64,000 nucleotides of DNA from Candidatus Parcubacteria bacterium (lineage in GTDB: Bacteria; Patescibacteriota; Minisyncoccia; Minisyncoccales; JAGMDC01). Each line of letters starts with the position of its first letter. The stretch's first letter is position 1. Positions 7,034 through 60,654 of the stretch are shown here, piece by piece. The notes under the pieces are model-generated. The model had not been told where the DNA came from. It made no database searches and worked only from the letters and a program-made list of their open reading frames with translations. The translations under genes and the position numbers were made by a program. The stretch spans positions 65,109-129,108 of the forward strand of contig JAGMAD010000003.1 in the NCBI GenBank assembly GCA_023130975.1, given 5' to 3'.

Positions 7034-7046
7034 CAATTTCAGTTTA

Positions 7047-7439: not shown

Positions 7440-7474
7440 TAAGGTTCTTTCAAAACTAAAAATTAAAAAATTAT

Positions 7475-7507
7475 GGGTAATTCATTTCTACCCTCTTTTT
7501 TTTTGAG
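7475..7507 (+). terminator. Intrinsic terminator after the 82-aa ORF
   Basis: GGGTA-N9-TACCC followed by TCTTTTTTTTT. Confidence 0.6.
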
Positions 7508-7531
7508 TAAAAATAAGGTAAGATTTAATTA

Positions 7532-9181: not shown

Positions 9182-9254
9182 GAACCTGCCTTTGGCAGAA
9201 CCTTGCTGTCTTCGGCAGTAAGAGCTTGAAAAATTTGTTGGAATTTAAATATAT

Positions 9255-13498: not shown

Positions 13499-13518
13499 AA
13501 AACTGTTAAGATAAAAAG

Positions 13519-15204
13519 ATGAGAAACAAATTGATATTATTTTTAATATTTTTGAGTGTTCTTATAGGAATAACTGGTTTTTGGTATTACCAAAAAAATA
13601 TTTATTCAAAAGAAATTATAAAGTTAGAAATATTAGGCCCGGAACGAGTGGAAGCAGGTGAGGAAGTTGAATATATTGTTAAGTATAAAAATAATGGTGA
13701 TACCAGAGTGGAAGAGCCAAAACTGATTTTTGAATATCCAGAACATTCAATAACTGAAGATGGTTATTTAAGAGATGAGGTCGGACCTGAAAAGCTTGGT
13801 GAAGCAATTTATCCTGGCGAGGAGAAAACATTTCAATTTAAAGCCCGGCTGTTAGGAAAAGAAAAAGAAAATAAACAAGCTAAAGCAGTGTTAACCTATC
13901 GGCCTAAAAATTTAGAATCGCGGTATGAATCAAAAACCACCTTTACTTCTATTATTGAAAAGGTCCCTTTGACTTTTGAGTTTGATTTTCCTTCAAAAAT
14001 TGAATCAGACAAAGAAATAAAATTTCGGCTTAATTACTTTTCCTATATTGATTATCCACTTGCTGATTTAGGAATAAAAATTGAATATCCTTTTAACTTT
14101 GAATTTAAAAAATCTTCCCCTTCTGCTTTAGAAAATACCGAATGGTCAATTAATCTCTTAGATAAATCAGATGGAGGAAGGATTGAAATTACTGGCAAGG
14201 TTTCCGGTGATGTTGGAGAAAAGAAAATTTTTGAAGCCAGGATAGGTGTTTGGCAAAAAGGAGAATTTGTTTTATTAAAAGAAGCGTCTAAGGGCATAGA
14301 AATTATTGAACCATCTCTCTATATTTCTCAGCAGATTAATGGAAATCCTCAATATGTCGCTAATGCCGGCGACCTACTTCATTATGATGTTTTCTTTAAA
14401 AATATCGGAGAAAAGGCCTTAACCAATCTTTCTTTAGTAACAAAGTTAGAAGGGAAAATTTTTGACCTTGAGACCATAAAAACATTTGATGGTAATTTCG
14501 GGCCCGGAGACAATTCAATTATTTTTGACTGGAAAAAAGTTCCCAAGCTCCAGTTTTTAGATTCTCAAGAAGAGGGCAGAGTTGAGTTCTGGATAAATTT
14601 AAAAGACGACTGGCAAATGGATAATTTAGAAGATAAAAATCTGACAATAAAAAATAAAATTTATTTGTCTCAACAAGCCCGGGAAGAATTTATAACTAAA
14701 GTGAATTCAAAGTTAGTTGTTGAACAAAAAGGATATTTTCAAGACGAGGTCTTCGGCAATTCCGGACCAATTCCGCCAGAAGTTGGTAAAACTACCACTT
14801 ATACTATAATCTGGCAGATTCAGAATTATTACAATGATATCAAGAATGTAAGAGTGAAGGCAATTTTGCCTTCTAGAGTAAATTTAACTGGTAAAATTTT
14901 TCCAGAAGAGCAAAATGAAAAATTTGCTTTTGATTCCAGCTCCAGAGAAATTGTTTGGAGCATAGAAGCTTTACCCCCCACCACTTTTGCTACCAAAAGT
15001 GGTGGGGGGTCAACAATTGCTTTTCAGATTGCTTTTATGCCAAGTATTCATCAAACAGGACAAACTCCAGAAATTATTGGGGAGGTATCTATCTTTGCTG
15101 AAGATACCTGGACAGAAGAATTATTAGAGAGCAGTGATGAAAACATAGATACAACCCTGCCTGATGATGAAACTGTCATTGAACAACAGGGTATTATACA
15201 GTAA
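13519..15204 (+). CDS. Membrane-anchored surface protein with CARDB/DUF11-like beta repeats
   Basis: N-terminal TM helix followed by repeated modules (VEYIVKYKNNGDT, LHYDVFFKNIGEKAL, TYTIIWQIQN). The domain call is approximate. Confidence 0.7.
   Translation: MRNKLILFLIFLSVLIGITGFWYYQKNIYSKEIIKLEILGPERVEAGEEVEYIVKYKNNGDTRVEEPKLIFEYPEHSITEDGYLRDEVGPEKLGEAIYPGEEKTFQFKARLLGKEKENKQAKAVLTYRPKNLESRYESKTTFTSIIEKVPLTFEFDFPSKIESDKEIKFRLNYFSYIDYPLADLGIKIEYPFNFEFKKSSPSALENTEWSINLLDKSDGGRIEITGKVSGDVGEKKIFEARIGVWQKGEFVLLKEASKGIEIIEPSLYISQQINGNPQYVANAGDLLHYDVFFKNIGEKALTNLSLVTKLEGKIFDLETIKTFDGNFGPGDNSIIFDWKKVPKLQFLDSQEEGRVEFWINLKDDWQMDNLEDKNLTIKNKIYLSQQAREEFITKVNSKLVVEQKGYFQDEVFGNSGPIPPEVGKTTTYTIIWQIQNYYNDIKNVRVKAILPSRVNLTGKIFPEEQNEKFAFDSSSREIVWSIEALPPTTFATKSGGGSTIAFQIAFMPSIHQTGQTPEIIGEVSIFAEDTWTEELLESSDENIDTTLPDDETVIEQQGIIQ
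14974..15009. repeat. Perfect 15-bp-arm palindrome in frame in the 561-aa surface protein gene
   Basis: CCCCCCACCACTTTT-GCTACC-AAAAGTGGTGGGGGG, encoding PPTTFATKSGGG. Confidence 0.85.
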
Positions 15205-15402: not shown

Positions 15403-15419
15403 AAGTTAAACAAAGAATT

Positions 15420-18400
15420 ATGGAACAAGAATATATTTCTCTTAAAAAAACAGAGGAGATTTTGACGAAAAAGAAAAAACCTTATTCAAGGGCTTATTTG
15501 AGTTTGCTTGCCCGACAGGGAAAGTTAAAAGCAGTGAAGATTGGAGTAGAGTGGATGACAACTAAAAATTGGCTTAACCAATTTTTGGGAAATCGAAAGA
15601 AGTCAAAGCGTTTAAAGTGGCAGTTTAAACATTCAGAGGTGATTTTGCCGTTGTATTTTGGTTATGGGTTGAAAATTGCTTTGGTAAAGCTTTCAAATGA
15701 TACTTTAAATCTAACATCCAAGGTTTTCAAAAAGCATTGGCAGGAGGCAGTGGCGTTGGTTTTACTGGTGGTAATGGTGAGTTCTGGATTTTGGTTCTAT
15801 CCTACAAGAACGGTTCTCGGTGCAACTTATTATTTTGTCCAGACAGACTGGTCTGGCGGTTTAGATGGAGAAACTTATCCAGTACATCCGACTAACAAAA
15901 CTAATTGGACAAAATACAACGCCAAAGATTCTGAAACTATTGCCAGTACCGAACTTGCTTTAACCACCACTTCTGACTCCTGGACCCAGACCAGCAGCGC
16001 TGATTTTAACGCCGGGACACCGAATAGTGTTTCCATAAATGAAGGGGATGTAATCTTGGCAGCAGAGTCTTTTTCTTGGTCTGCCAAATCTGCCTGGGAT
16101 ACCCCTGATATCGGAGAATATTCTGTCCCAGCCTTTGCTGATTTAGATAATGATGGTGATTATGATTTGTTGATCGGGGAGAAGAATGGAATAAATTATG
16201 GTTATGAAAACACTGGTTCAATTACCAGCCCAACCTGGTCTGCCAAATCTGCCTGGGATGTTTCTGATGATGAAGTAAATGTCGCCCCAGCCTTTGCTGA
16301 TTTAGATAATGATAGCGACTATGATTTGTTAATTGGGGAGTATTATGGAGTAAGTTATGGTTATGAAAACACTGGTTCAATCACCAGCCCAACCTGGTCT
16401 GCCAAATCTGCCTGGGATACTCCTGATGTCGGAACTTGGAGTAGGCCAGTCTTTGCTGATTTAGATAATGATAGCGACTATGATTTGTTAATTGGGGAGT
16501 ATTATGGAGTAAGTTTTGGGTATGAAAACACTGGTTCAATTACCAGCCCAACCTGGTCTGCCAAATCTGCCTGGGATACCCCTGATATCGGAGAATATTC
16601 TGTCCCATCCTTTGCTGATTTAGATAATGATGGTGATTATGATTTGTTGATCGGGGAGTATTATGGAGTAAGTTTTGGTTATGAAAACACTGGTTCAATT
16701 ACCAGCCCAACCTGGTCTGCTAAATCTGCCTGGGATACTCCTGATATTGGGAGCAGTGCCGCCCCAGCCTTTGCTGATTTAGATAATGATGGCGACTATG
16801 ATTTGTTGATTGGGGAGGCTGGTGGAGTAAGTTTTGGGTATGAAAATGCGATTACTTATTATTCTCCCGGCGATCTTATTTCCTCCTCCCAGGACCTTGG
16901 CCAGCAATCTAATTTCACTACAATTCAATGGACTGAAAATCTACCTTCAAACACTGATTTGAAATTCCAAATAGCTACTAATAATGATAATGCAACATGG
17001 AATTTTATTGGCCCTGGTGGAACTGACGCTACTTATTACACTACTGCTTCAGGAGAGAACATCCATTCTTCTCATAATGAAGACCAATATGTGAAATACA
17101 AAGCATATTTATCTACTTCTGATACTTCAGTCACGCCGACTTTATCGGATATTACTATTAACTACGAATATTATCCTAGTTCAGCTAGTTTAACTTCTTC
17201 TCCTTACGATACCTCTGATGCAGCTAATGCTTTGAGTGATATTCAATGGACAGAGAGTTTAGCCAGTAATACAAACATCAAGTTTCAAATGAGAACTGCT
17301 CCAGATAGTTCTGGTTCTCCTGATTGGGCAAATGGTTCTGGCTGGTGCGGACCATCAACCTGCGCTGCCACTAAAGCTGATGATGATTATGCCTCTGATT
17401 ATTACGAGACAACTTCTGCTGGAGAGACCGCTAATTCTGTTCATTCCACTGGCGAGAACGATCAATGGTTTCAATACAAGGTCTGGCTGGTAACCACTGA
17501 TAACGTGTCTTTTCCAACTCTATCAGATGTTACTCTAACCTATGTGGTTAACGCGCCGCCGGAATTTAATCCTGATTATCCGAGCCCCAGCGCAGGAGGT
17601 GTTTCAGCTGTTCAAAATTCAGACGGAACAGTAACCATTAATTATTCTATTAGAGACCCGGATACTACTTCAGGTTCATCAACTCCTGGCTATATTACTC
17701 CTTCGTTTGAATACTGGAATGATTCTTCATGGGTAAGTTGCACCACAATGGCTTCAGGAGATACTGATAACAAAGCAGTTGAAGAAGTAAATTATATTGC
17801 TTATTCAGCTACCTGGTATGCTAAGACAGATTTTAATAGCCAATATATGAATAATACAGCTAAGATTAAGATAACCATTAATGACAATGAAGCAGCTAAT
17901 AACACTGCCAATCAAGAATCAGCCACCTTTACTTTAGATACAAAAGACCCTGTGCCAGGCACGCCTTCAATTTCAGTAGATCCCTCTCAAAGTCCTGCTG
18001 CCTTAACCATTTCTTGCTCAGATGATTTGCAATCTACTTTACAGATGAAAATAGGTTTGGCTTCAGATTTAAGTGATGCCACTTATGAAGATTATTCCAC
18101 TTCTTCGACCATATCTTTAGTAACCGACCCAGATACTGTTTATATCCAATTCAAAGACGAAAAAGGAAATACCTCTTCTATCGTCTCTGCGACCACCCCA
18201 GAAACGCCAAGCAGTATGATAATTAGAGATGTAACAAATTTAGATACAAGCGATTTTCAATTATTTATTGCTTGGAAAGTCATCGAGGTTCCAAGTCCTG
18301 GTTTTCAACAATATATCATTTTTCGTTCTACTGATGGGACTAATTATGCTCAATTAACCACCATTGATAATCGGCTATTGAATTATTATATGGATACGAG

Positions 18401-20846
18401 TTTAAGCAGCAGTAACACTTATTACTATAAAATTAGTTCCCAGGACTCTAATAATAATATTTCTTATTATTCTTCAGTAGTCAGCGATGTTCCCAATGGC
18501 CAAGGAGGAACAGATACAACCTCTCCAACCATTTCTAATATTGCCGATAGTGCTTTAACCACCAATTCGGTTACCATTACATGGACCACTGATGAGCTAT
18601 CAAATTCCTATGTTGACCATAATACTACTCCATCTGTTGATGGTTTAGTAGCCCAAGGAGTATTAACAATGACAGAGAGCCACTCTGTTACCACAACCGG
18701 CCTAAACCCTGGAACAACATATTATTACAGGGTAAGATCTGTTGACCCTTCAGGTAATGAAGGAACAGATGACAACAGCGGTTCATATTATACTTTTAAC
18801 ACTACTGCTGGTCCAATAATTTCCAATGTTTCTACTATTGAAGTTACTAATAATACTGCCAAAATTAATTGGACAACCAATGTTTCTGCTAATTCTTATG
18901 TTGTTTATTCAACTAATTCTGATATGTCTGATTTTTCAGAATATGGAACCACTGATTTAACTACTGCTCATTCCGTGACTATCTCCAGCTTAACTCAAGG
19001 AACCAAATACTATTACTATGTTAAATCAACTGATTCAGAATCAAATACTGCTTATGATAAAAATGTTGTTGATGGAGCGATAAACTATTATAATTTTACT
19101 ACTACTTCAGATAGCACAGGACCAGTTATTTCCAATGTTACAGCAGCAATAGTAAACGATACTGGAGCTACAATTACTTGGACTACCAATGAGAATGCTA
19201 CATCTCAAGTGATTTACGGAACATCAACCTCTTACGGTTCTGAAACAACAGAGGATACTACTCTAACCCTTCAGCATTCAGTCACTCTTTCTAGTTTAAC
19301 AAAAGCAACTACTTATTATTACAAAGTGATTTCCAAAGATGCTTCAGATAATCAAGCAGAAGATGATAATTCCGGGAACAGCTATAGTTTTACAACAACA
19401 AACGAACCAGGCGAAACAGTTTATGTGGGCGGCGGAGGCGGAGGAGGATGTTCTACAGATAGAAAAGCACCTATTATTTCCAACATTATTGTTTCTGATA
19501 TCACTTTTAGTTCAGTAACAATTTCTTGGAACACAAACGAGAAAGCTGATGCATTTGTGGAGTATGGAGAAACTACTGATTATGGCAGGATTGTTGGAGA
19601 TCCAGAAGAATCTAATAAGAATCATTCAGTAAACATATCTTCCTTGTCTTCAGGAACAACTTATCATTTTAAAATATTGGGCAAAGATAGTTCTGGAAAT
19701 CTTGGTTATTCAGAAGACCAGACCTTTGCTGCTCTAGGAACGAAAACAGAATTTATAGAAGAAGTTCCGGAAGAAGAAAAAGGATTGGTAGAAAAAGCAA
19801 TAGATATTCTTAAAACACTTAGCAATCCTCATTCTTTATCTTCAGTATCCAGTGCTTTGGAAGAATCAGCTTCAAGAGTAATCGGTGCTCCTTTAATTGT
19901 CGGCGAATATCCAAAAGTAGAGATAGGAAGCGATTGGGCAAAAATTAGCTGGGTTACTGATAAGAAAGCAAATAGTTTGGTGGCTTATGCTTCAGAGGAA
20001 GAATATGATTCGTTAAAGGATGAACCATATGTAATTGTTTCAGGCGATCCTGATGAAATGACCACGATACATATTATTAAGCTCAACAATCTCAAGCCAT
20101 CTACCCTATATCACTACCAGGTTCGTTCCAAAGCTACATTTGGTGATTTGGCAAAATCAGAAGACAAAACATTCACTACTTTAGGTCTAAAACAAGAAAT
20201 ATCAGATATTACTTTAGGAGAAATTACTGATTTTACAGCTACATTGTCTTGGAATACCACTATTCCTACTCAAACCTTAATTGAATACACTAATACAAGA
20301 ACAAATCAAACAGAAACAAAAAAAGATCCCTATTTTGTTAGGGACCATCGTTCTACCTTAACCGAATTAGAGGCAAGGACCGCTTATACGTTAAAAATAA
20401 AAGCCAAAGATGAAAAAGGAAAAGAGATTGTTTCTCCAATTCTAACTTTTTCTACTGGTGATGATATTGAACCGCCAGAAATTAGCCAAACCAGAACAGA
20501 AACAGCGCTTTCTTCAAAAGGAGACAGGGTTCAATGTATTATTTCCTGGCTGACTAATGAACCATCAACAACTCAGGTTTTTTATCAAAAAGGAGTGATG
20601 CCAGCTGAGGAAATGAGTTTCACTCCAAAGGATAATACTTTAACCAAAAAGCATATTGTGGTGATTACCAATTTCAGCCCAGGAACTGTTTACAGATTCT
20701 ATGTTGAATCAGAGGATTTTTCTGAAAACAAGGCTAAATCCAAGGACTATACTATTTTAACTTCCCAGAGAAGGGAAAGTATAATTCAAATGATAATTAG
20801 GAACTTTGAGCAGAGTTTTAGTTGGATGAAACAAATGAGGTTTTAG
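15420..20846 (+). CDS. Giant surface protein (1808 aa) with four parts in order: cytoplasmic HTH, one TM helix, five FG-GAP/VCBS-like repeats, and about seven or eight Fn3-like domains
   Basis: N-terminal excisionase/MerR-like HTH (..ARQGKLKAVKIGVEWMTTKNWLNQFL). TM helix at aa 108-127. FADLDNDGDYDLLIGE repeats. Repeated I(S/T)N..V....A.I.W.T......V.Y......Y modules. Confidence 0.85.
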   Translation: MEQEYISLKKTEEILTKKKKPYSRAYLSLLARQGKLKAVKIGVEWMTTKNWLNQFLGNRKKSKRLKWQFKHSEVILPLYFGYGLKIALVKLSNDTLNLTSKVFKKHWQEAVALVLLVVMVSSGFWFYPTRTVLGATYYFVQTDWSGGLDGETYPVHPTNKTNWTKYNAKDSETIASTELALTTTSDSWTQTSSADFNAGTPNSVSINEGDVILAAESFSWSAKSAWDTPDIGEYSVPAFADLDNDGDYDLLIGEKNGINYGYENTGSITSPTWSAKSAWDVSDDEVNVAPAFADLDNDSDYDLLIGEYYGVSYGYENTGSITSPTWSAKSAWDTPDVGTWSRPVFADLDNDSDYDLLIGEYYGVSFGYENTGSITSPTWSAKSAWDTPDIGEYSVPSFADLDNDGDYDLLIGEYYGVSFGYENTGSITSPTWSAKSAWDTPDIGSSAAPAFADLDNDGDYDLLIGEAGGVSFGYENAITYYSPGDLISSSQDLGQQSNFTTIQWTENLPSNTDLKFQIATNNDNATWNFIGPGGTDATYYTTASGENIHSSHNEDQYVKYKAYLSTSDTSVTPTLSDITINYEYYPSSASLTSSPYDTSDAANALSDIQWTESLASNTNIKFQMRTAPDSSGSPDWANGSGWCGPSTCAATKADDDYASDYYETTSAGETANSVHSTGENDQWFQYKVWLVTTDNVSFPTLSDVTLTYVVNAPPEFNPDYPSPSAGGVSAVQNSDGTVTINYSIRDPDTTSGSSTPGYITPSFEYWNDSSWVSCTTMASGDTDNKAVEEVNYIAYSATWYAKTDFNSQYMNNTAKIKITINDNEAANNTANQESATFTLDTKDPVPGTPSISVDPSQSPAALTISCSDDLQSTLQMKIGLASDLSDATYEDYSTSSTISLVTDPDTVYIQFKDEKGNTSSIVSATTPETPSSMIIRDVTNLDTSDFQLFIAWKVIEVPSPGFQQYIIFRSTDGTNYAQLTTIDNRLLNYYMDTSLSSSNTYYYKISSQDSNNNISYYSSVVSDVPNGQGGTDTTSPTISNIADSALTTNSVTITWTTDELSNSYVDHNTTPSVDGLVAQGVLTMTESHSVTTTGLNPGTTYYYRVRSVDPSGNEGTDDNSGSYYTFNTTAGPIISNVSTIEVTNNTAKINWTTNVSANSYVVYSTNSDMSDFSEYGTTDLTTAHSVTISSLTQGTKYYYYVKSTDSESNTAYDKNVVDGAINYYNFTTTSDSTGPVISNVTAAIVNDTGATITWTTNENATSQVIYGTSTSYGSETTEDTTLTLQHSVTLSSLTKATTYYYKVISKDASDNQAEDDNSGNSYSFTTTNEPGETVYVGGGGGGGCSTDRKAPIISNIIVSDITFSSVTISWNTNEKADAFVEYGETTDYGRIVGDPEESNKNHSVNISSLSSGTTYHFKILGKDSSGNLGYSEDQTFAALGTKTEFIEEVPEEEKGLVEKAIDILKTLSNPHSLSSVSSALEESASRVIGAPLIVGEYPKVEIGSDWAKISWVTDKKANSLVAYASEEEYDSLKDEPYVIVSGDPDEMTTIHIIKLNNLKPSTLYHYQVRSKATFGDLAKSEDKTFTTLGLKQEISDITLGEITDFTATLSWNTTIPTQTLIEYTNTRTNQTETKKDPYFVRDHRSTLTELEARTAYTLKIKAKDEKGKEIVSPILTFSTGDDIEPPEISQTRTETALSSKGDRVQCIISWLTNEPSTTQVFYQKGVMPAEEMSFTPKDNTLTKKHIVVITNFSPGTVYRFYVESEDFSENKAKSKDYTILTSQRRESIIQMIIRNFEQSFSWMKQMRF
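16077..16871 (+). repeat. Five tandem 159-nt (53-aa) FG-GAP-like coding repeats
   Basis: TGGTCTGCCAAATCTGCCTGGGAT recurs at 16077, 16236, 16395, 16554 and 16713, an exact 159-nt period. Units are highly similar at nucleotide level by eye. Confidence 0.95.
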
Positions 20847-42081: not shown

Positions 42082-43785
42082 ATGTTTGAAAATATTTTAG
42101 AAAAAGAAAACAAAAAAGTTTTCCTTTTAGGAAACGAGGCAATAGTAAGAGGCGCTTTGGAAGCAGGCGTCCAGTTTGTTTCTACTTATCCCGGGACACC
42201 GGCTTCAGAAATAGGGAATAGCTTTTATGAAATTCAAAATTCAAATCCGCCAGCTGGCGGAAAAATTAAAAGCTTTTATTTTGAATTTTCTGTGAATGAA
42301 AAAGTGGCGATAGAAGCAGCAGGAGGTGCTTCTTTTTCTGGTTTACGTTCTTTGGTAGCTATGAAAAATTTTGGTTTGAATGTTGCTTCTGATTTTTTAC
42401 TTCCTCTGGTTTATTCCGGTGTTAAAGGAGGAATGGTCATCCTGTCAGCAGATGATCCTTCCTGTCATAGTTCAGCTCAGTCCGAAGAGAATACTCGGGC
42501 TTTTGCTTCTTTAGCGCATATTCCTATTCTTGAGCCATCAACACCGCAGGAATGTAAGGACTTTGTAAAATTTGCTTTTGATTTGTCTGAAAAATTCCAA
42601 ATTCCAGTAATGATTCGGGAAACCACCCGAGTAGCCCACCAAAGCGCTCCAGTAAAATTATCTAATATCCAATATCTAAAATCTAATATCCAGTTTATTA
42701 AAGACCATAAGAAGTTTGTGACAATGCCGCCAAGAGTTTTGGAAATGCACCAAGAGCTGTTGGAGAAGATTGAAAAAATCAGAGATTTTTCCGAGATAAG
42801 TAAATTAAATTCAATATTTAGAAGTCGGACTTCCGCTGGAAGTCCGACTTCTCGTAAATTAGGTATTATTACTTCAGGTGTGTCTTATCTCTATGTAATG
42901 GAAGCTTTAAAAGAATTAAATTTAGATATCCCGGTTTTGAAATTGGGCTTTTTTTATCCTTTACCAGAAGAAAAAATTAAGAAGTTTATTAATCCGCCAA
43001 CTGGCGCATTAAAAAAAGTCCTGATAGTAGAAGAATTAGAACCCTATTTAGAAAATGAAGTAATGAGATTAGCAAAAGAAGTTAACTGTAAATTAAAAAT
43101 CGTGGGCAAGGAGTTAATCCCAGAAGTTGGTGAATTAAAACCAGAAATTGTAACTTCGGCTATCGCCAAATTCACAAATAAAAAACATCCAACATTAAAC
43201 ATCCAACATCCAACATCTATTCCAAAACGTCATCCACAGCTTTGCCCTGGTTGTCCTTATTGGTTTGTTTTTAACGGTGTAAAGAAAGCCACTAAAGATA
43301 TGGATATTATTTTCGGCGGTGATATTGGCTGTTATATGTTAGCCGGATTTTCTCCTCATAATATTCAGGATTATCTTTATTGTATGGGTTCTTCAATTGG
43401 TATCGCCCATGGAATTAAGAAAGCTGCTCCGCCGGATGGCGGACAAAAACTTATTACTTTTATTGGTGATTCAACTTTTTTTCATTCTGGCATTCCAGCT
43501 TTAATTAATACTGTTTTTAACAAGTCAAATCCATTAATAATTATTATGAATAATTCCACTACTGCTATGACTGGCCATCAACCTCATCCGTCTGCACCAG
43601 CTGAACCTGACGGAATAGAGATTGAAAGTATTGTTAAGGCCTGTGGGGTCAAGAATTTAAGAACGATTGACCCAGCCAAGCAGGAAGAATTTGTAAAAAC
43701 AATCAAGGAGTTTTTAAAGAAAGATGAAGTTTCAGTAATCATTGCTCGCCATCCCTGCATATTTGTGAAAAAACAAAAAGGTTAA
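42082..43785 (+). CDS. iorA: Indolepyruvate:ferredoxin oxidoreductase alpha subunit (no C-terminal ferredoxin domain visible)
   Basis: LLGNEAIVRGALEAGVQFVSTYPGTPASEI and the TPP region CPGCPYW..GDIGCY..GDSTFFHSG. Confidence 0.85.
   Translation: MFENILEKENKKVFLLGNEAIVRGALEAGVQFVSTYPGTPASEIGNSFYEIQNSNPPAGGKIKSFYFEFSVNEKVAIEAAGGASFSGLRSLVAMKNFGLNVASDFLLPLVYSGVKGGMVILSADDPSCHSSAQSEENTRAFASLAHIPILEPSTPQECKDFVKFAFDLSEKFQIPVMIRETTRVAHQSAPVKLSNIQYLKSNIQFIKDHKKFVTMPPRVLEMHQELLEKIEKIRDFSEISKLNSIFRSRTSAGSPTSRKLGIITSGVSYLYVMEALKELNLDIPVLKLGFFYPLPEEKIKKFINPPTGALKKVLIVEELEPYLENEVMRLAKEVNCKLKIVGKELIPEVGELKPEIVTSAIAKFTNKKHPTLNIQHPTSIPKRHPQLCPGCPYWFVFNGVKKATKDMDIIFGGDIGCYMLAGFSPHNIQDYLYCMGSSIGIAHGIKKAAPPDGGQKLITFIGDSTFFHSGIPALINTVFNKSNPLIIIMNNSTTAMTGHQPHPSAPAEPDGIEIESIVKACGVKNLRTIDPAKQEEFVKTIKEFLKKDEVSVIIARHPCIFVKKQKG
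42246..42261. repeat. TCCGCCAGCTGGCGGA palindrome, copy in iorA
   Basis: AAATCCGCCAGCTGGCGGAAAAA, read as N P P A G G K. Degenerate relatives lie at 42991-43006 and 43428-43445. Confidence 0.8.
42661..42692 (+). repeat. In-frame TCTAATATCC oligo-repeat in iorA
   Basis: TCTAATATCCAATATCTAAAATCTAATATCCA, encoding SNIQYLKSNIQ. Confidence 0.75.
42820..42852. repeat. GAAGTCGGAYTTCC hairpin family, copy in iorA (in frame, shifted register)
   Basis: AGAAGTCGGACTTCC-GCT-GGAAGTCCGACTTCT with perfect 15-bp arms, encoding RSRTSAGSPTS. Confidence 0.9.
43185..43218 (+). repeat. In-frame CATCCAA/CAACAT oligo-repeat in iorA
   Basis: ACATCCAACATTAAACATCCAACATCCAACATCT, encoding HPTLNIQHPTS. Related to the CAACAT repeats in the 41447-41475 intergenic region. 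Confidence 0.8.
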
Positions 43786-48699: not shown

Positions 48700-49530
48700 A
48701 TGGAAAACAAAAAAATTATTATTGCTGTTTTGATTATTATAGGACTGATAGGTCTTTTTTTCTTAGCTAAAGAGGCCTCGCCAGAAAGCTTTAGAGAGCT
48801 CGGTTTAAGTTTATCTTTGCCCTGGTTTACTTTTATTATTGCTATTATTGATGGTTTTAATCCCTGTACTTTATGGGTTTTGACTTTTTTACTTGTTTTA
48901 CTAATTTCTGTATCTGAAAGCAGAAAAAGGATATTTATTGTTGGTTTAACTTTTGTAGCAGTTATTTTTATTGTTTATCTTATGTTTATGGCTGCCTGGT
49001 TAAACGTATTTCGTTATATAGGATTTATTGATCCATTAAGAATAATGATTGCCAGCGTAGCTTTGATTGCTGGAGCGATTAATTGTAAGGAATTCTTTGC
49101 TTTTAGAAAAGGTATAACCTTAATGATACAAGAAAAACATAAACCCCTTTTAATGCAAAAGATAGAAAAAATGAAAGAGGTTATAAAATACGGCTCTTTG
49201 CCGGGCTTAATCACAGCTTCTGTTGTCCTGGCTCTATTTTCTTCTTTAGTGGAACTGCCCTGTACTGCTGGCTGGCCTATAATTTATACTGGTGTATTAT
49301 CAGCAAAGGTCTTTGAAGGAACTATTTCCTATTATATTTATTTATTATTTTATAACCTTATTTACATCATACCTCTTAGCGCAGTGATATTATTGTTCGG
49401 CTGGTTTTTTAAAGGAAAGAAAATTACAAAAACACAGACGCAGGCAATAAAACTTATTGGCGGAGTAATAATGATTGCCTTGGGAATAATTTTATTAGTC
49501 AATCCAGAATTATTGATGTTGATGGAGTAA
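48700..49530 (+). CDS. CcdA/DsbD-like thiol-disulfide transmembrane electron carrier
   Basis: Polytopic membrane protein with two intramembrane Cys motifs (GFNPCTLWV, LVELPCTAGWP). Confidence 0.65.
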   Translation: MENKKIIIAVLIIIGLIGLFFLAKEASPESFRELGLSLSLPWFTFIIAIIDGFNPCTLWVLTFLLVLLISVSESRKRIFIVGLTFVAVIFIVYLMFMAAWLNVFRYIGFIDPLRIMIASVALIAGAINCKEFFAFRKGITLMIQEKHKPLLMQKIEKMKEVIKYGSLPGLITASVVLALFSSLVELPCTAGWPIIYTGVLSAKVFEGTISYYIYLLFYNLIYIIPLSAVILLFGWFFKGKKITKTQTQAIKLIGGVIMIALGIILLVNPELLMLME

Positions 49531-49534
49531 AATG

Positions 49535-49660
49535 AACTACCCCGCCCTAAAGGGCGAGGTATCCCTGCCTGCCTGCCGGCAGGCAGGCCTTCAGGCGAGT
49601 TCTTTCAGCGGCTTTCATTTCCGCCGCAAGCGGCGGGATATTGCTGCCGCCGAAATAAAC
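49535..49660. repeat. GC-rich cluster of three or more palindromes (REP/BIME-like) between the CcdA-like gene and sufC
   Basis: CCCCGCCC-TAAA-GGGCGAGG, CCTGCCTGCC|GGCAGGCAGG, and TCCGCCGC-AA-GCGGCGGGA with an alternative partner GCTGCCGCCG. There is a strong local GC contrast. Confidence 0.8.
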
Positions 49661-49666
49661 TATATT

Positions 49667-50383
49667 ATGCTTTTAGAAATTAAAAATTTAAAAGTAGGCG
49701 TAAAAGGAAAAGAGATATTGAAATACATTAATTTAAATATAAAAAAGGGGGAGATACAAGCTCTTCTTGGTCCCAATGCCAGTGGGAAATCCACCCTTGC
49801 CCAAGTTATTTTGGGCAATCCAAAATATAAAATTACTGAAGGCAGTATTTTTTTTAATAAAAAAAATATTACCAAACTTTCTCCAGACAAACGAGTTAAA
49901 CTAGGAATTGCTTTGAGTTGGCAAAATCCACCAGTCATAAAAGGAGTCAAACTATCTCAATTATTAAAAGAAATTTCAATGTTTAGAGGTTCGGCCTCTA
50001 AACATTTTAACTATGAGAAACAACTATTAGAGAGAGAGGTAAATGTAGATTTTTCCGGCGGAGAGAAAAAAATGTCAGAATTATTACAGGTTTTAACCCT
50101 TGAACCTAAACTGGTAATTTTTGATGAGATTGATTCTGGTTTGGATTTAAAACGGCTGGGAGAAGTATCAGAGATAATAAAAAAAGAACTGCTCGCTAAA
50201 AAAGTTTCAATTTTATTAATTACTCACTCTGGAGAGATTTTAAAATTCTTAAAACCGAATATTACTAATGTAATGGTCGCTGGAAAAATTATTTGTAAAG
50301 AAAAAGATTATAAAAAGGTTTTAAAAACCATTAAAAAATATGGCTATGAAAAATGTAAAAAATGTCGCAGACCGAGCATATAA
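49667..50383 (+). CDS. sufC: Fe-S cluster assembly ATPase SufC
   Basis: MLLEIKNLKV.., GPNASGKSTLAQVILGNPKY, FSGGEKKMSE and FDEIDSGLD. The 45 upstream in-frame codons (from 49532) lie in a GC-rich palindrome cluster and are unlikely to be coding. Confidence 0.88.
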   Translation: MLLEIKNLKVGVKGKEILKYINLNIKKGEIQALLGPNASGKSTLAQVILGNPKYKITEGSIFFNKKNITKLSPDKRVKLGIALSWQNPPVIKGVKLSQLLKEISMFRGSASKHFNYEKQLLEREVNVDFSGGEKKMSELLQVLTLEPKLVIFDEIDSGLDLKRLGEVSEIIKKELLAKKVSILLITHSGEILKFLKPNITNVMVAGKIICKEKDYKKVLKTIKKYGYEKCKKCRRPSI

Positions 50384-51287
50384 GAAGTTATATGCTCCGG
50401 TAGATTATTATCAGATAAATAATCAAATTCCAGAAATTTGTGAGTTGAAGGGAATAGAAATTCTACCTTCTAAATTGGCTTGGGAAAGATATAGCTGGAC
50501 CAAAAAATATTTTTCAAAAAAGCCAAAAAGCGGCTATTTTATTTGGGTTAAAGAACAACCTAAATCAGCACTTTTTACTTGTATAAGCATAGCCAACAAA
50601 AACATAAGACAGGAGCTTCAAAACCTTTTAGTTGTAGAAAAGGATTTGAAAGTAGAACTTCAAGGAGCCTGTAATGTTTTAAAAAAGAATTTAGCTGGAA
50701 TTCATCAGACACAAGGAAAAATTATTTTAAAGCAAGGTTCTGTTCTCAAATATAATCACATTCATTCCTGGGGCGATAGAGATATTATAGAACCAGATTA
50801 TGAATTTTTTTTAGAGAAAAAAGCAAAAATAGATTATAATTATAAAATTTTGTCTTCTCCTAAATTACTAAAAACAAAAACCTTGATTACTCTTTTGGAA
50901 AATTCTTCTGCTAATATTAATATTGTAGGAAATTTCTCTAAAACAAAAGCAGAAATTAGAGAAAGTTTAATTCTAAAAGAAAGAGGTGCTTCAGGAATAG
51001 TAAAGCTTAGATTGGTGGGAAGCAAAAATAGTGAAATTACTGCTCATTCTCAAATAAAAGCTCAAGCTGAAAGCAAAGGTCATTTGGATTGCCAAGGACT
51101 GCTAATTGACAAGACGGCTAAAATTTCTTTAATTCCAGAATTGATTTGTGAAAACAAAAAAGCCCAAATTACTCATGAGGCATCTATTGGAAAAATCTCA
51201 GAAGAGGAATTAAGTTATTTAAGAACGCGTGGCTTAAACGAAAAAGAAGCTATTAATTTAATTGTTAATGGATTTTTAGAAAATTAA
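50340..51287 (+). CDS. Fe-S cluster assembly scaffold protein SufB/SufD family
   Basis: C-terminal ITHEASIGKISEEELSYLRTRGLNEKEAINLIVNGF matches the SufB/D signature. Overlaps sufC by 44 nt. Confidence 0.8.
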   Translation: MAMKNVKNVADRAYKKLYAPVDYYQINNQIPEICELKGIEILPSKLAWERYSWTKKYFSKKPKSGYFIWVKEQPKSALFTCISIANKNIRQELQNLLVVEKDLKVELQGACNVLKKNLAGIHQTQGKIILKQGSVLKYNHIHSWGDRDIIEPDYEFFLEKKAKIDYNYKILSSPKLLKTKTLITLLENSSANINIVGNFSKTKAEIRESLILKERGASGIVKLRLVGSKNSEITAHSQIKAQAESKGHLDCQGLLIDKTAKISLIPELICENKKAQITHEASIGKISEEELSYLRTRGLNEKEAINLIVNGFLEN

Positions 51288-51289: not shown

Positions 51290-51877
51290 ATGGATGTTGA
51301 AAAAATAGAAAAAGAACTAAGAAAAATAAAGGATGAAGTTTTACGATGCCAAAAATGTGTGCTTTATCAAACTCGAACTTATCCAGTTATTGGAGAAGGC
51401 AATCACCAAGCAAAAATAGTATTTATTGGCGAAGCGCCCGGTGAATCAGAAGACAAAACCGGTCGGCCTTTTTGCGGAGCAGCTGGTAAAGTTTTGGATG
51501 AGCTTTTAAATTCTGCTGGAATTGAGAGAACAGATGTCTATATTTGTAATATTCTCAAATGCCGTCCGCCGGAAAATCGCAATCCTAAAATAGAAGAGAT
51601 AGAGGCCTGTACTCCTTATCTTCTAAAACAAATTGAAATTATAAAACCCAAAGTAATCTGCACTTTGGGTAATTTTTCCACTGCTTTTATTTTTGAAAAA
51701 TACGGCCTGAAAGATAAAATTGAGGGGATAAGTAAAATTCATGGAAATGTTTTTGAGGCAAAAACTCTATTTGGTTCTCTAAAAATCATTCCTCTCTATC
51801 ATCCAGCAGCTGCCACCTACAATCCCAATATGAAAGAAACTCTCAAAAAAGATTTCCAAATCCTTAAGAAAATTTAA
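51290..51877 (+). CDS. udg: Uracil-DNA glycosylase, family 4
   Basis: C..C..........GEG......FIGEAPG..ED..G.PF.G.AG pattern (CQKCVLYQTR..GEGNHQAKIVFIGEAPGESEDKTGRPFCGAAG). Confidence 0.9.
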   Translation: MDVEKIEKELRKIKDEVLRCQKCVLYQTRTYPVIGEGNHQAKIVFIGEAPGESEDKTGRPFCGAAGKVLDELLNSAGIERTDVYICNILKCRPPENRNPKIEEIEACTPYLLKQIEIIKPKVICTLGNFSTAFIFEKYGLKDKIEGISKIHGNVFEAKTLFGSLKIIPLYHPAAATYNPNMKETLKKDFQILKKI

Positions 51878-52050
51878 CAGGAACTGTTTAAAGTGGAAGT
51901 TTAAACAGTAGTTTAAAGGCGAAGTCGCATTCTGGATATTTCGCAAAGATTCACCTTATATTTATTTGCCCGACTCATTTCTTTTTGATAAGATTAGATT
52001 AGAAAGTAGGAAATGTCCATAGAAAAATATCAATAAGAGGAAAAACAGAA

Positions 52051-52749
52051 ATGATGACAAAAAAGAAAATTATTTCATTATTAGGATTAGACAAACCAAT
52101 AAATAAAAAATGGATTCTTTCAATAATATTAATAATATTGAGCCCTTTTATTTTATTTGGTCTATTATTTGGTCTATTACGGATCTATGATTCAGTTTAT
52201 CTCATTTATATTGACTACTTGCCTGTACCGGAATATCAGAAAAGAACCGAGCCAATAAACATTTGGTCTCTTTGTGAAAAGATCAAAGATAGCCAATCAC
52301 AGGAATTATGTTTTACCATAGTAAAAGAAAAAGATTTTGAGAAGTGTTTAGATTTGGTAAGTGAAGTAAAAAAGTATTCCTCAGAAAATTATCCCTGGTA
52401 TGATTTCCCTTTTTATTCTTCGCCTCGCTACAATTATTTTCCCGGAGGAGTAGAAAGAATGATTAGGGAAGGCAAAAATTATGATTCTGATTGGTGGTGT
52501 AGAGAAATTTACTTTCCTTATGTTTACGTTGAGGAAGATTATTATTTTTGTCGAGCCTTTTTAGAAAATCCTCACTTTTGCAGTAAAATACTCTATTCAA
52601 TAGGACCATCTAAGAAGATATGTTACCAAGATGCCGCCTTTGTCTGGGAAGATCCTTTATTATGTCAAAAAGCTGAATATCCGGACTTTTGTTATCTTCG
52701 CATAGTGCTAAAATATTTGGAAACTCAAGAAAAAAAGATGATTAAATAA
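52051..52749 (+). CDS. Hypothetical Cys-rich membrane-anchored protein (232 aa)
   Basis: ORF with an N-terminal TM helix and many Cys, Tyr and Trp residues. No recognisable motif. Confidence 0.6.
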   Translation: MMTKKKIISLLGLDKPINKKWILSIILIILSPFILFGLLFGLLRIYDSVYLIYIDYLPVPEYQKRTEPINIWSLCEKIKDSQSQELCFTIVKEKDFEKCLDLVSEVKKYSSENYPWYDFPFYSSPRYNYFPGGVERMIREGKNYDSDWWCREIYFPYVYVEEDYYFCRAFLENPHFCSKILYSIGPSKKICYQDAAFVWEDPLLCQKAEYPDFCYLRIVLKYLETQEKKMIK

Positions 52750-52757
52750 AAAAAATA

Positions 52758-52800
52758 GGGTTATGGAATTTTTAAGGAATTCCATAACCCTTTCTGTTTT
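52758..52800. terminator. Bidirectional terminator between convergent hypothetical genes
   Basis: GGGTTATGGAATT-TTTAAGG-AATTCCATAACCC flanked by an A-run and a T-run. Confidence 0.8.
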
Positions 52801-52832
52801 TATTTCTTTTGCAGTTTTTGGGGATTTTTAGC

Positions 52833-53264
52833 TCAATCCCACATCCACCCGTCGTCAAAGCTTATGGTTGTTACCCGTCTTGTTGTGTCATATCGCCAAC
52901 AGTGAAATAGAATTTCCGTGGCTACTGTTTCTCGAGAGCGCCATTGGTATGGCCAGGATTTTCCGGTCTGACTTTCCCACGAATCAATTGTCCAATATGA
53001 CAATGCCCAGGCACCATTCCAATATTTTCCAACACTGTCTCCTTCTGATGTTAATTTAATTCGCACTCCGCCATTATCCTCGTCGAGCCATGGAGGTCCA
53101 GCAGGAGTTATATCCTGAAAGTATATACTGGCTGGATATGGCGGTGTTTCTGCTTGAACTAGCATTACAGTTGTGCTTATCGCTAATACGACTAACATTG
53201 CTATCACCACAGAGATTACTTTCTTTTTGGTATTCATTTTTTCTTTTTTCTCCTTTTCGTTCAA
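52833..53264 (-). CDS. Hypothetical secreted Trp-rich protein (143 aa)
   Basis: Signal/anchor helix ending ..VQA then a Trp/Gly-rich domain. Visibly higher GC than its neighbours. GGAG lies upstream of the ATG. Confidence 0.6.
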   Translation of the reverse strand: MNEKEKKEKMNTKKKVISVVIAMLVVLAISTTVMLVQAETPPYPASIYFQDITPAGPPWLDEDNGGVRIKLTSEGDSVGKYWNGAWALSYWTIDSWESQTGKSWPYQWRSRETVATEILFHCWRYDTTRRVTTISFDDGWMWD

Positions 53265-53293
53265 CGGCTATCCAAGGTTCTCATTATTCTGGT

Positions 53294-53361
53294 ATCTCGG
53301 ATAACCTAATTTATCTACCAAGTTTCTGATATTTTGACAAACAAATTAGGATATCCGAGAT
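53294..53361. promoter_or_regulatory. 19-bp inverted repeat flanking a promoter-like TTGTCA-N17-TAGATA (minus strand) upstream of the 143-aa gene
   Basis: Arms ATCTCGGATAACCTAATTT (53294-53312) and AAATTAGGATATCCGAGAT (53343-53361) with one mismatch. The 30-nt spacer carries the -35 and most of the -10 on the minus strand. Confidence 0.55.
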
Positions 53362-53453
53362 TCATTCAATCCATATTTTTTTTGGAAAGAACTATCACTG
53401 AAAAAGTTCTATTTTCTTTTTATCAAAATTTAGAAATCTTGTTAAACCAACAG

Positions 53454-55508
53454 TTAAAAGTTTTCTCTTTTGTAATCACACTCTTTATTAGAACATTTCA
53501 CTTGGCCTTTTTTTGTTTGGACTAAAAGAGAACCGCATTCAGGACATTTCTCATTAATTGGTTTGTCCCAGAGAGCAAAATCACATTTTGGATATTGATT
53601 GCAGGCATAAAATGTTTTTCCTTTTTTAGTTCTTTTTTCAACAATTTCTCCTTTGCTGCATTTAGGACATTTTATATTCAAGGACGGTCTTTCCAATGGT
53701 TTGATGTATCTGCATTTTGGAAAGTTAGAACAGGCATAAAATTTCCCGAATCTGCTCATTTTTTTTACTAAAGGCGAACCGCATTCAGGACATTTTTCAT
53801 TTGTTTCTTCTTCAGCAATTTCTTTTTTATCTATTTCTTTTTCTTTCACTTTCAAGTTTTTTTCAAAAGGTTCGTAGAATTCTTTTATTACCGGAACCCA
53901 TTTTCTCTTGCCTTCAGCTATTTCATCTAAATCCTTTTCCATTTCTGCTGTGAATTTTATATCTACAATATTAGGAAAATGTTTGACTAAAAGGTCATTA
54001 ACTAAAATTCCTATTTCAGTCGGCTGAAATTTTTTGTTTTCATTTTTCTGAACATAATTTCTTTCCTGAATTGTAGAAATTGTGGGCGCATAAGTTGAAG
54101 GTCTGCCAATGCCGTTTTCTTCCAGGACCTTAATCAAACTGGCTTCAGTATATCTGCCTGGTGGTTGGGTAAAATGTTGCGAAGAAATAAGTTTTAAGAG
54201 TTCTAAAATCTCGTTGCCTTCCAGCAATGGCAGTTCTGTTTCTTCAAATTTTATAGGATAGATTTTCAAAAAACCGTCAAATTTTAGAGTTTGACCCGAA
54301 ACTCTAAAAATATAGTTCTTGGCAGATATATTAATAGTCGTGGAATCAAAACAGGCTTGTGCCATTTGACAAGCAATAAATCTCCGCCAAATTAAATCAT
54401 AAAGACGGAACTGGTTATCATCTAACTTTTCTTTAATCTTTATTTTGTCTGGTTCTTTATCAGGATAAGCAGGTCTTATAGCTTCGTGGGCTTCTTGGGC
54501 GCCTTTTGCTTTTGTTTTGTATTTCTTCAAAAATCCAGCCCAATATTCTTTTCCAAGATTATCAATGATAAATTTTCTGGCTGCAAACAAAGACATTTCA
54601 GATAGATTTAACGAATCAGTTCTATGATAGGTAATAAGTCCTTTTTCATAGAGACCTTGTGCAGTTCTCATTGTTAATTTTGCTGGCCAGCGCAATCTTT
54701 TCCAGGATTCTTGCTGTAAAGTGGAAGTAGTAAAAGGAGGCAAAGGATTTCTTTTTATTTCTTTTTTTTCAATATTGACGACTTTGTATTCCGCACCTTT
54801 TAAGTCCTTAACAATCTTTTCCGCCTCATTTTTTGTTTTAATTCCCAGTTTCGGAATTACTTTATTATCTTTTTTAATAAGTTTTGCCAAAAATTCATTT
54901 TTCGCGTTGCTTTCGCGTGATTGAAGCAAAGCTTCAATCAGCCAGTATTCTTCTGGCTTGAAATTTTCAATTTCTCTCTCCCGCTCCACTATCAGTCGCA
55001 CTGTTACTGATTGGACTCTTCCAGCAGATAATCCTCGGGCAACTTTTTTCCATAAAAGAGGGGATAGTTTATAGCCGACTAAACGGTCTAAAACTCTTCT
55101 TGCTTGCTGAGCATTAAATAAACTTATATCAATATCACGAGGATTTTTTAGTGCTTCTTCAATCGCTTGTTTAGTTATTTCGTGAAAGACAATCCTCTGA
55201 TGTTTTTTACCATTTAAATTTAAAATTTGACTTAGATGATAAGCGATTGCTTCTCCTTCTCTATCTTCGTCAGTAGCCAAGATAAGCAGGTCTGCTTTTT
55301 GAGATTCTTTTTTAAGCAAAGAGACAACCTTTCTTGACTTTAAAGGAATAACATATTTCGGTTTAAAATCGTTTTCTATATCAATTCCTAATTCGCTTTT
55401 TGGTAAATCACGAATGTGTCCGTAAGAAGACAACACCTTGTATTCGGAGCTTAAGAATGATTGAATTGTTTTTGATTTCGTTGGGCTCTCTACTAAAATT
55501 AAGTTCAT
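53454..55508 (-). CDS. topA: DNA topoisomerase I
   Basis: MNLILVESPTKSKTI (Toprim), ATDEDREGEAI, active-site region ITYHRTDS, and three C-terminal C4 zinc ribbons. Confidence 0.95.
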   Translation of the reverse strand: MNLILVESPTKSKTIQSFLSSEYKVLSSYGHIRDLPKSELGIDIENDFKPKYVIPLKSRKVVSLLKKESQKADLLILATDEDREGEAIAYHLSQILNLNGKKHQRIVFHEITKQAIEEALKNPRDIDISLFNAQQARRVLDRLVGYKLSPLLWKKVARGLSAGRVQSVTVRLIVEREREIENFKPEEYWLIEALLQSRESNAKNEFLAKLIKKDNKVIPKLGIKTKNEAEKIVKDLKGAEYKVVNIEKKEIKRNPLPPFTTSTLQQESWKRLRWPAKLTMRTAQGLYEKGLITYHRTDSLNLSEMSLFAARKFIIDNLGKEYWAGFLKKYKTKAKGAQEAHEAIRPAYPDKEPDKIKIKEKLDDNQFRLYDLIWRRFIACQMAQACFDSTTINISAKNYIFRVSGQTLKFDGFLKIYPIKFEETELPLLEGNEILELLKLISSQHFTQPPGRYTEASLIKVLEENGIGRPSTYAPTISTIQERNYVQKNENKKFQPTEIGILVNDLLVKHFPNIVDIKFTAEMEKDLDEIAEGKRKWVPVIKEFYEPFEKNLKVKEKEIDKKEIAEEETNEKCPECGSPLVKKMSRFGKFYACSNFPKCRYIKPLERPSLNIKCPKCSKGEIVEKRTKKGKTFYACNQYPKCDFALWDKPINEKCPECGSLLVQTKKGQVKCSNKECDYKRENF

Positions 55509-60183: not shown

Positions 60184-60654
60184 ATGATTGAGATTAATAA
60201 TTTGACAACTAATCCAGTAGATGAGGAATTTTTGAGAAAAAGTGCTAAAATAGTGTTAGATGGCGAATCCGCCAGCTGGCGGATGGCGGAGCGGAAAAAG
60301 GATGTTGATTTATCTATTGCTTTTGTAGGACAGGGAAGAATGAGAGAAATCAATAAAAGATACCGGGGCAAAAATCGCGTTACTGATGTTTTGAGTTTTC
60401 CAGAATCCAAGGTTTTATTACAAAAATTTAAAGTAGGTCCTTCTCAAAAAATTCAGGGCTTAGGGGAAATAATCATTTGTCTGCGTGAAGTTAAAAAGAA
60501 TGCTAAAAAATTTAGTTCTTCCTTTGAAAAAGAATTAAATAAGGTTTTAATTCATGGAATTCTACATTTGTTAGGATACGACCATGAGAAGGGCGAAGAG
60601 AAGGCAGAGGAGATGGAAGAAAAAGAAAAATATTATTTGTCAAAAGTTTTTTAG
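60184..60654 (+). CDS. ybeY: rRNA maturation endoribonuclease YbeY
   Basis: TDVLSFP and the zinc motif HGILHLLGYDHE. Confidence 0.92.
   Translation: MIEINNLTTNPVDEEFLRKSAKIVLDGESASWRMAERKKDVDLSIAFVGQGRMREINKRYRGKNRVTDVLSFPESKVLLQKFKVGPSQKIQGLGEIIICLREVKKNAKKFSSSFEKELNKVLIHGILHLLGYDHEKGEEKAEEMEEKEKYYLSKVF
60268..60283. repeat. TCCGCCAGCTGGCGGA palindrome, copy in ybeY
   Basis: GAATCCGCCAGCTGGCGGATGGCGGAGCGG, read as E S A S W R M A E R. Confidence 0.8.

Follow-up and report, generated by a model that had tools for sequence, protein, structure and literature searches.

Insertion sequences (IS) of the IS200/IS605 family are moved by TnpA, a Y1 (HUH) transposase which transfers the top strand as single-stranded DNA, recognises a subterminal hairpin near each end, cuts at a fixed distance from it and pastes the element 3' of a short target motif, with no target duplication (PMC5027513, PMC3333891, PMC10055086). 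IS200/IS605 elements without genes, resembling the palindrome-associated transposable elements (PATEs), are documented (PMC10055086), and such derivatives can be mobilised by TnpA in trans (PMC5027513, PMC3333891, PMC10055086). Here, we propose that a GC-rich block lying directly before sufC, in a 64-kb stretch of Candidatus Parcubacteria bacterium DNA (contig JAGMAD010000003.1, positions 65,109 to 129,108; the whole stretch is called the window), is probably IS200/IS605-derived DNA without a transposase gene, which lies on the minus strand in what was a spacer of about 16 nt. The candidate tnpA-less mini-element or remnant measures about 123 nt (49532..49654, minus strand; boundaries uncertain by about 5 nt). 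As such, the block is most likely an ordinary feature of a known kind, a tnpA-less IS200/IS605 derivative that is either a PATE-like element or a remnant.

Position and fold of the block

The block is located between the stop codon (49528-49530) of a gene for a 276-aa membrane protein (48700..49530, plus strand), which the insertion adjoins, and the ATG at 49667 of sufC (49667..50383, plus strand, with a Pfam ABC_tran match). Thioredoxin reductase, thioredoxin, two membrane proteins, sufC, sufBD and uracil-DNA glycosylase (UDG) make up this same-strand gene cluster. At 61% GC against 34% overall, 49533-49660 is the longest GC-rich stretch of the window, which bears out the contrast with AT-rich surroundings drawn in a preliminary description of this DNA made from the sequence without database searches. 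The hairpin elements listed there are likewise all present. Three of the hairpins within the block are strong (H1, H2 and H4). H1 (49540-49559) reads CCCCGCCC-TAAA-GGGCGAGG on the plus strand. H2 (49564..49588) is a perfect GC-rich palindrome with register-shifted CCTG repeats, whose core, described as 20 nt long, in fact spans 22 nt (GCCTGCCTGCCGGCAGGCAGGC, 49567-49588). H3 (GCC-TTCA-GGC, 49587..49596) is a minor hairpin of the predicted folds. H4 (49603..49655, minus strand) is a nested hairpin and candidate left end, with an outer stem joining 49603-49612 to 49646-49655 and an inner hairpin TCCGCCGC-AA-GCGGCGGGA at about 49620-49638. The fold of the block is far more stable than that of shuffled sequences (z = -5.6 and -5.9 for the plus and minus strands, respectively), with none of 200 shuffles folding as well.

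H1 as a transposon right end

On the minus strand, H1 is the imperfect palindrome CCTCGCCC-TTTA-GGGCGGGG (49540..49559), a hairpin of the type that TnpA recognises at the right end of an element. It has a strand preference, since a C.A mismatch on the plus strand becomes a G.U pair on the minus strand (-13.8 and -17.7 kcal/mol, respectively). Directly 5' of it stands GATA (49560..49563, minus strand), from the motif GATACC that is common to both ends of the family, and which we infer to be a candidate DNA guide for recognition of the cleavage site. The tail TAGTTCAT (49532..49539, minus strand) provides the 8 nt from the foot of the hairpin to the inferred cleavage site, and its TTCAT is the transposon-end motif. 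The locus has the hallmark of an IS200/IS605 right end, a subterminal imperfect palindrome with a set, short spacing to the point of cleavage.

The exact 20-mer of H1 occurs at 28 IMG/VR loci of 30-62% GC, far above chance, and TnpB or Y1 TnpA is present in 10 of them. In IMG/VR it is found at the 3' end of open reading frames (ORFs) ending in ...LAL*, often with the TAG stop inside the hairpin loop; the ORFs that it closes carry OrfB_IS605 and Cas12f1-like TNB domains, and one adjoining ORF is a Y1_Tnp, IS200-like transposase (E = 5.9e-43). By BLAST against annotated records, H1 falls under "IS element-IS200-605 / IS605 OrfB" in Sulfolobus virus SMV1, under OrfB in ATV and under a TnpB gene in plasmid pMGB1, while a BLAST of the block against plasmids and phages returned nothing interpretable outside the H1 part. 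The same 20-mer appears in a published table of spacers that match the IS200/IS605 element common to pMGB1 and SMV1; the text of that study names this element ISC1467 (PMC3839810, Table 7).

A query of JGI metagenome contigs with H1 plus its minus-strand 3' flank in the window (the 27-mer H1+TAGTTCA, CCTCGCCCTTTAGGGCGGGGTAGTTCA) matched 39 loci on largely AT-rich contigs (28-50% GC, mostly 28-42%). The 3' end of a tnpA of the IS200 type (136 aa) lies just upstream in 31 of these, with the whole 136-aa TnpA gene in 12, and 25 of the 39 matches are within 130 nt of a contig end, as would be expected of a repeat that breaks assemblies. The family sequence is GATA-CCTCGCCCTTTAGGGCGGGG-TAGTTCAT, to which the window is identical over 32-35 nt (35 nt in the case of L134). 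The first seven tail bases were part of the search pattern, so that only the eighth varies freely among the 39 loci; it is T in 34 and C in 5. Because the flanks of the 39 loci diverge directly after TAGTTCAT, the right end can be set as GATA, hairpin and TAGTTCAT, with 8 nt from foot to end. L134 was briefly a candidate for a "solo H1 unit", which we rejected, because it is an ordinary right end cut short where the contig stops. At NCBI, the family's TnpA is annotated in Pacearchaeota, Nanoarchaeia and Magasanikbacteria, which have small AT-rich genomes of the candidate phyla radiation (CPR) and DPANN, like the source of the window; it is widespread in CPR/DPANN metagenomes. As judged by sequence comparison, GATA-H1-TAGTTCAT is shown to form the right end of IS200-like elements, a family that is common among AT-rich genomes of the CPR/DPANN type.

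The 20-nt hairpin CCTCGCCCTTTAGGGCGGGG itself does not vary among TnpB and TnpA elements that differ widely, nor among hosts of widely differing GC content (IMG/VR L112-L139; L163), and encodes TnpB ORF tails ending in ...LAL* or ...EASPFRAG*, depending on the frame.

Insertion relative to close relatives

Three close relatives share the order of membrane-protein gene and sufC with the window, the neighbouring membrane protein being 94% (L004), 89% (L006) and 81% (L008) identical at the amino acid level. At this site L004 and L006 have only TAA-TTCATAACTAT(C/T)TT-ATG as spacer and L008 only TAA-AT-ATG, a distance of 2-16 nt from the upstream stop to the sufC ATG. The source is a metagenome-assembled Patescibacteria genome resembling Nealsonbacteria/Minisyncoccales. 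The block is not an assembly artefact, because its sequence is identical in three independent assemblies of ZHAN22-2 samples. Comparison with these relatives thus shows the whole block, at the level of the sequences, to be an insertion, and its arrival in a spacer of about 16 nt is recent. The flanks read ...GGAGTAA on the left and ...AAACTATATTATG on the right, and a precise empty site would join the two directly.

Another relative, L005 (91% identical), carries about 3.4 kb of other genes (4838-8246) between the membrane-protein gene and sufC, which marks this junction as a site of recurrent rearrangement. Elsewhere in the window, about 1.6 kb (51870-53468, with ORFs 52051-52749 and 52833-53264, neither with a Pfam match on record) is missing between UDG and topA in L006.

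A candidate left end and target site

Full copies of the family start TTCAT|TACATnnn, followed by a nested hairpin of the form GGCAA-GGATACC-(variable stem of 6-8 bp)-GAGAGGAA-TTGCC, in which 10 of 15 pairs covary through compensatory changes. The foot of the inner hairpin lies 19 nt from the inferred cleavage site. The left-end hairpin of IS608 has the same spacing of 19 nt. On the minus strand H4 has a comparable layout, with an outer stem GGCGGC/GCCGC, a 5' internal loop ..AATATCC, a GC-rich inner stem and a 3' internal loop that reads GAAATGAAA where the family has GAGAGGAA; 16-18 nt separate the junction from the foot of its inner hairpin, compared with 19 nt in the family. When restricted to 49585-49685 (101 nt), a covariance model of the left end (R1) matched 49650-49608 on the minus, and correct, strand with a weak score of 9.5 bits (E = 0.044). 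Across the whole window its best match was on H1 and not H4 (16.7 bits, E = 0.54), in keeping with the GATACCTCG that full-length copies have before the inner hairpin of the left end as well as before the hairpin of the right end. The inner 19-mer of H4 has three matches in IMG/VR, all in high-GC coding-like sequence and consistent with chance. The layout of H4 and the restricted model match are suggestive of a degenerate left end.

The candidate target, or transposon-adjacent, motif 5' of the left end would be TTTAT (49655..49659, minus strand), although at this point the relatives' empty sites no longer resemble one another. TTCAT stands before full-length copies, with CTCAT in L151 and TTTAT in L172. 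The ends of the block are not inverse complements of each other, and it therefore has no terminal inverted repeats. AACTA was considered as a 5-bp target duplication and rejected, as its left copy belongs to the right-end tail TAGTT, which is conserved in L134 and in 39 further loci. Within the uncertainty of about 5 nt in the junction, the block shows the family's trait of insertion 3' of a motif of 4-5 nt without inverted repeats or duplication.

Comparison with described systems

The IS200-like tnpA-only members (L146, L168, L172, L177 and others; TnpA cluster P0001-P0120) have a right end identical to that of the block. Like them, the block lacks terminal inverted repeats, has a candidate target resembling TT(C/T)AT and includes a candidate nested left hairpin at a spacing similar to the family's. 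Unlike them, it has no tnpA, no hairpin in a 5' untranslated region and no conserved CATTACAT left terminus, and its interior consists of GC-rich palindromes found in no full IS200-like copy, neither H2 nor H3 having a counterpart there. PATEs, the Sulfolobus SMN elements and the 240-nt tnpA-less derivative in L151 are short and ORF-less like the block, with end hairpins of the IS200/IS605 type, and presumably use TnpA in trans. By definition, however, PATEs form families of many copies in which both the left and the right end can be recognised, and they and miniature inverted-repeat transposable elements occur as several dispersed copies, whereas the block is a single copy in the 82 kb formed by the window and 18 kb of flanks and has a left end that is a candidate. 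L151 also retains recognisable internal IS sequence, which the block does not. In Sulfolobales and their viruses, ISC1467 and the TnpB (OrfB) elements related to it share the same 20 nt of hairpin, located where tnpB ends (the right end), but with the flank AGGAGGTCAG in place of TAGTTCAT; they carry tnpB, and hence a right-end RNA (reRNA), and belong to another domain of life with another genome composition than the host of the block.

Rickettsia palindromic elements are palindromic selfish DNA of a reduced, AT-rich genome that can lie in frame inside a gene or at its beginning, in families of 100-150 bp with many copies and no known IS200/IS605 ends. The block resembles them in being read as an N-terminal extension, and in having sibling palindromes inside coding sequences. 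A further comparison is with repetitive extragenic palindromes (REPs) and bacterial interspersed mosaic elements (BIMEs) accompanied by RAYT (TnpA-REP), which are likewise clustered extragenic GC-rich hairpins resembling IS200/IS605 ends (PMC3333891) and which carry a conserved 5' GTAG or CGTC tag beside the palindrome (PMC3733652). In the block, the minus-strand GTAG is 3' of H1 (GGGCGGGGTAG) and H2 and H4 are untagged. Moreover, its three hairpins are unrelated, in contrast to the alternating copies of one REP, each occurs just 1-2 times in the 64-kb window, and no RAYT or Y1 transposase was found in the 82 kb. On these grounds (no tag, no RAYT, no high copy number and no alternating REP) we rejected a REP/BIME identity. 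What stands of the BIME-like pile-up proposed in the preliminary description is that the block is mobile-element DNA, that it is absent from close relatives and that H2 recurs in the genome.

Origin of the block

In light of this, how might the block have arisen? Read 5' to 3' on the minus strand, it has a left-end-like nested hairpin, a central palindrome, a right-end hairpin and the TAGTTCAT tail. A full-length or already miniature copy probably inserted on the minus strand just after the stop of the membrane gene, and it now lacks tnpA. If H4 is a degenerate left end, the roughly 123 nt of the block would amount to a whole PATE-like mini-element that could be mobilised in trans; alternatively, it may be the residue left by internal deletion of a full copy. 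H2 may be part of the miniature element or may have been added later.

Several observations weigh against a tnpA-less IS200/IS605 derivative. Demonstrable homology is confined to some 32-35 nt at the right end, a third of the block. The 9.5 bits that H4 scores with the left-end model would be lost in the noise of a whole-window search, and the GGATACC and GAGGAA motifs conserved in the family are just partly present in it. Phmmer searches with TnpA and TnpB queries of ORFs of at least 40 aa in the 82 kb found no tnpA or tnpB at E <= 1; the block, which has no room for an ORF, is thus not an autonomous member of the family. No second copy of the whole block was found in the extra 18 kb of flank or in the 82 kb overall, the composite pattern of H1 and H2 has no match in the JGI metagenome contigs, and searches with protein words from the block translated on either strand gave no candidates. 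Finally, the exact junctions are uncertain by about 5 nt, the spacer having diverged among relatives.

Alternative explanations

The block could instead be a composite of a solo IS200-like right-end remnant (H1) and independently acquired GC-rich mini-palindromes (H2 and H4), of a kind dispersed across this genome and found within coding genes too. H2 recurs at 1090-1112, at the place in a DUF72 gene where the preliminary description had noticed a related palindrome (the copy has one extra base), and at 54 IMG/VR loci, none with TnpA or TnpB; the inner hairpin of H4 resembles TCCGCCAGCTGGCGGA at 42246 and 60267. GC-rich perfect palindromes are over-represented in the window (6 loci whose arms reach 8 bp or more, where shuffles give 0.43), palindromic indels tell close relatives apart, and neither H2 nor H4 is seen in any of 39 family copies. 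A composite would nevertheless require the same 16-nt spacer to have been hit independently two or three times after divergence from the 94%-identical relative, so that a single event is the more parsimonious, and the architecture, strand and spacing of H4 fit a left end; we therefore regard a composite as rather unlikely. Whatever its origin, the insert might have been absorbed into the coding sequence, with SufC starting at ATG 49532 and gaining 45 N-terminal residues. The reverse complement of the terminal TTCAT creates this ATG, and the frame from there to ATG 49667 is in phase and stop-free over 45 codons, as had been noted. It is also just 1 nt past the upstream stop, which favours coupled re-initiation, and it is the start picked by gene callers, giving the public 283-aa "SufC" whose extension residues include MNYPALKGEVSLPACR... 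The TTCAT-derived ATG and the GC-rich, stop-poor interior are, however, enough to explain these gene calls. Since the interior is open in all three plus-strand frames, the open sufC frame carries little weight (it is expected by chance with a probability of roughly 0.2-0.3). An SD-like (Shine-Dalgarno) motif precedes just 3 of 42 long ORFs across the window, and starts follow A/T-rich sequence, which suggests SD-independent initiation in this organism; this near-absence fits a start at 49532, and led us to drop an argument on that ATG from Shine-Dalgarno motifs. For such initiation, H1, which begins 6 nt after ATG 49532, is unfavourable, whereas ATG 49667 has the AT-rich, unstructured context typical of the genome's starts and is favoured for that reason. 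Homologues begin at the downstream ATG, those of L006 and L008 at the one homologous to 49667. The true start of sufC is thus very probably 49667 (MLLEIKNLKV...), and we give little credence to a translated extension.

Two further explanations assign the block a role as RNA. The preliminary description had offered a structured mRNA leader or attenuator of sufC and sufBD that responds to iron or oxidative stress, and the position directly upstream of sufC in a thioredoxin/suf cluster, along with a very stable sense fold (-68.5 kcal/mol, with the z of -5.6 given above), speaks for it. The mutually exclusive pairings on which it leaned are not borne out, as the downstream GCCGC does not compete with the inner hairpin of H4 but nests around it, pairing with the upstream GCGGC as outer stem (-28.5 kcal/mol); the inner hairpin has a probability of 0.99, and with its 5' arm blocked the best fold reaches just -16.5 kcal/mol, which is 12 kcal/mol worse. 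No U-tract follows any plus-strand hairpin of the block. An Rfam scan of the whole window at gathering thresholds found a transfer-messenger RNA (tmRNA) alone and nothing at the block, and an E-value scan of 49300-49900 gave sub-threshold chance matches only (the best being HgcC, at 24 bits against a cutoff of 50). A third of the block is, moreover, provably a transposon end, and L004, L006 and L008, all with the same operon, lack it altogether, which is the observation that the preliminary description had itself named as telling against a leader. A regulatory leader is hardly credible as a result. Scarcely better placed, and still very improbable, is a minus-strand small RNA, namely an orphan omega RNA or reRNA that guides a TnpB encoded elsewhere, with H1 as the last stem of its scaffold and the 3' end of the adjacent gene as the guide. 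H1 closes tnpB genes in many loci and hence lies inside their reRNA region, omega RNAs are often encoded by PATEs (PMC10055086), and H1 followed by UAGUUCAUUUU is terminator-like on the minus strand. On the other hand, the window's subtype, GATA-H1-TAGTTCAT, belongs to tnpA-only IS200-like copies rather than TnpB elements, there is no tnpB in the 82 kb, the upstream sequence is unlike the TnpB 3' ends seen, and no minus-strand promoter-like site occurs within 49525-49663, the nearest (49692-49664) being just inside sufC and adjoining the left end of the block. For the same reasons (a right end of the tnpA-only subtype and no TnpB 3'-end match upstream) we rejected the block as a tnpB 3' end or omega RNA, which an open minus-strand frame ending in ...YLAL* had suggested.

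As a tnpA-less IS200/IS605 derivative, the block would have its hairpins as the passive result of transposon-end structure and not as a suf regulator. The sole terminator-like site, H1 with UAGUUCAUUUU, faces the minus strand, so that we expect transcripts of the sense strand to run on into sufC, and in the present orientation, which lacks a sense-strand terminator, the operon is probably read through. The hairpins could still influence mRNA stability or translational coupling.

H2 and other GC-rich palindromes

The exact 20/21-mer of H2, CCTGCCT(N)GCCGGCAGGCAGG, is found at IMG/VR loci (L058-L111), on unrelated viral contigs of 38-69% GC, with up to four copies per locus. Its flanks there have direct repeats of at least 7 nt in 18% of cases, against 2% in controls, and of up to 14 nt (L068). 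At L091:2239-2330, H2 lies in the variable loop of a tRNA-Met, which ARAGORN still calls as a 92-nt tRNA with a long extra arm; L060 has the same H2-bearing tRNA in degraded form, and in L103 H2 is within D-loop-like sequence.

Within this 34% GC genome, GC-rich perfect palindromes of 16-38 nt stand in frame inside six or more protein-coding genes. These are found at 1090-1112 and 1281-1312 (DUF72 gene, 847-1641), 10117-10145 (ORF 9249-12749), 14973-15010 (ORF 13510-15204), 42246-42261 and 42822-42850 (a 567-aa ORF, 42082-43785) and 60267-60284 (ybeY), as well as at L182:255-324 in a radical SAM gene. Some form small families: TCCGCCAGCTGGCGGA occurs twice, AAGTCGGAYTTCC..GGAAGTCCGACTT three times (once intergenic) and CGAGACCCGACCYCGGG twice. 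In comparison with PDB homologues of DUF72, the palindrome at 1281-1312 is a clear loop insertion of about 15 residues, while that at 1090-1112, where the homologues vary, is not a clean one. The relatives have their own examples, such as a 33-nt GC-rich imperfect palindrome in frame in a membrane gene (L006:4155-4187) and a CCCCCACCACTTT..AAAGTGGTGGGGG hairpin at L004:1108-1140, which belongs to the family of window 14973-15010 but lies at a different locus. A 36-nt palindrome at the sufC/sufBD overlap (50364-50402) is missing in L006 and L008, and at one place inside sufC the window (49978-50006) and L008 (5142-5192) have different palindromes. It is a possibility, though in our view an unlikely one, that short GC-rich perfect palindromes such as H2 (CCTGCCTGCCGGCAGGCAGG) are a distinct class of tiny mobile hairpins and that the block is a pile-up of these with an IS200 end.

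Other features of the window

Five tandem copies of a 159-nt unit (15969-16904) are found within an 1813-codon open frame (15405-20846). The tmRNA gene (6181-6580, minus strand; 120.8 bits), the sole Rfam match at the gathering level, adjoins smpB.

Implications

If the block is indeed a tnpA-less derivative, its insertion shows recent IS200/IS605 activity in a reduced genome of the episymbiont type, inside an operon and in an orientation without a sense-strand terminator. For annotation, the public "SufC" would carry a 45-residue artefact of transposon-end DNA. The 20-nt end hairpin, identical from the ISC1467 of Sulfolobus to IS200 copies of CPR/DPANN genomes, is a handy marker for remnants of these elements and could serve in searches for IS200/IS605 right ends. 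The small GC-rich palindromes inside coding genes and tRNAs are, in our view, a more interesting lead than the block itself. More generally, GC-rich hairpin islands in AT-rich CPR genomes can be the ends of IS200/IS605 elements and not riboswitches.

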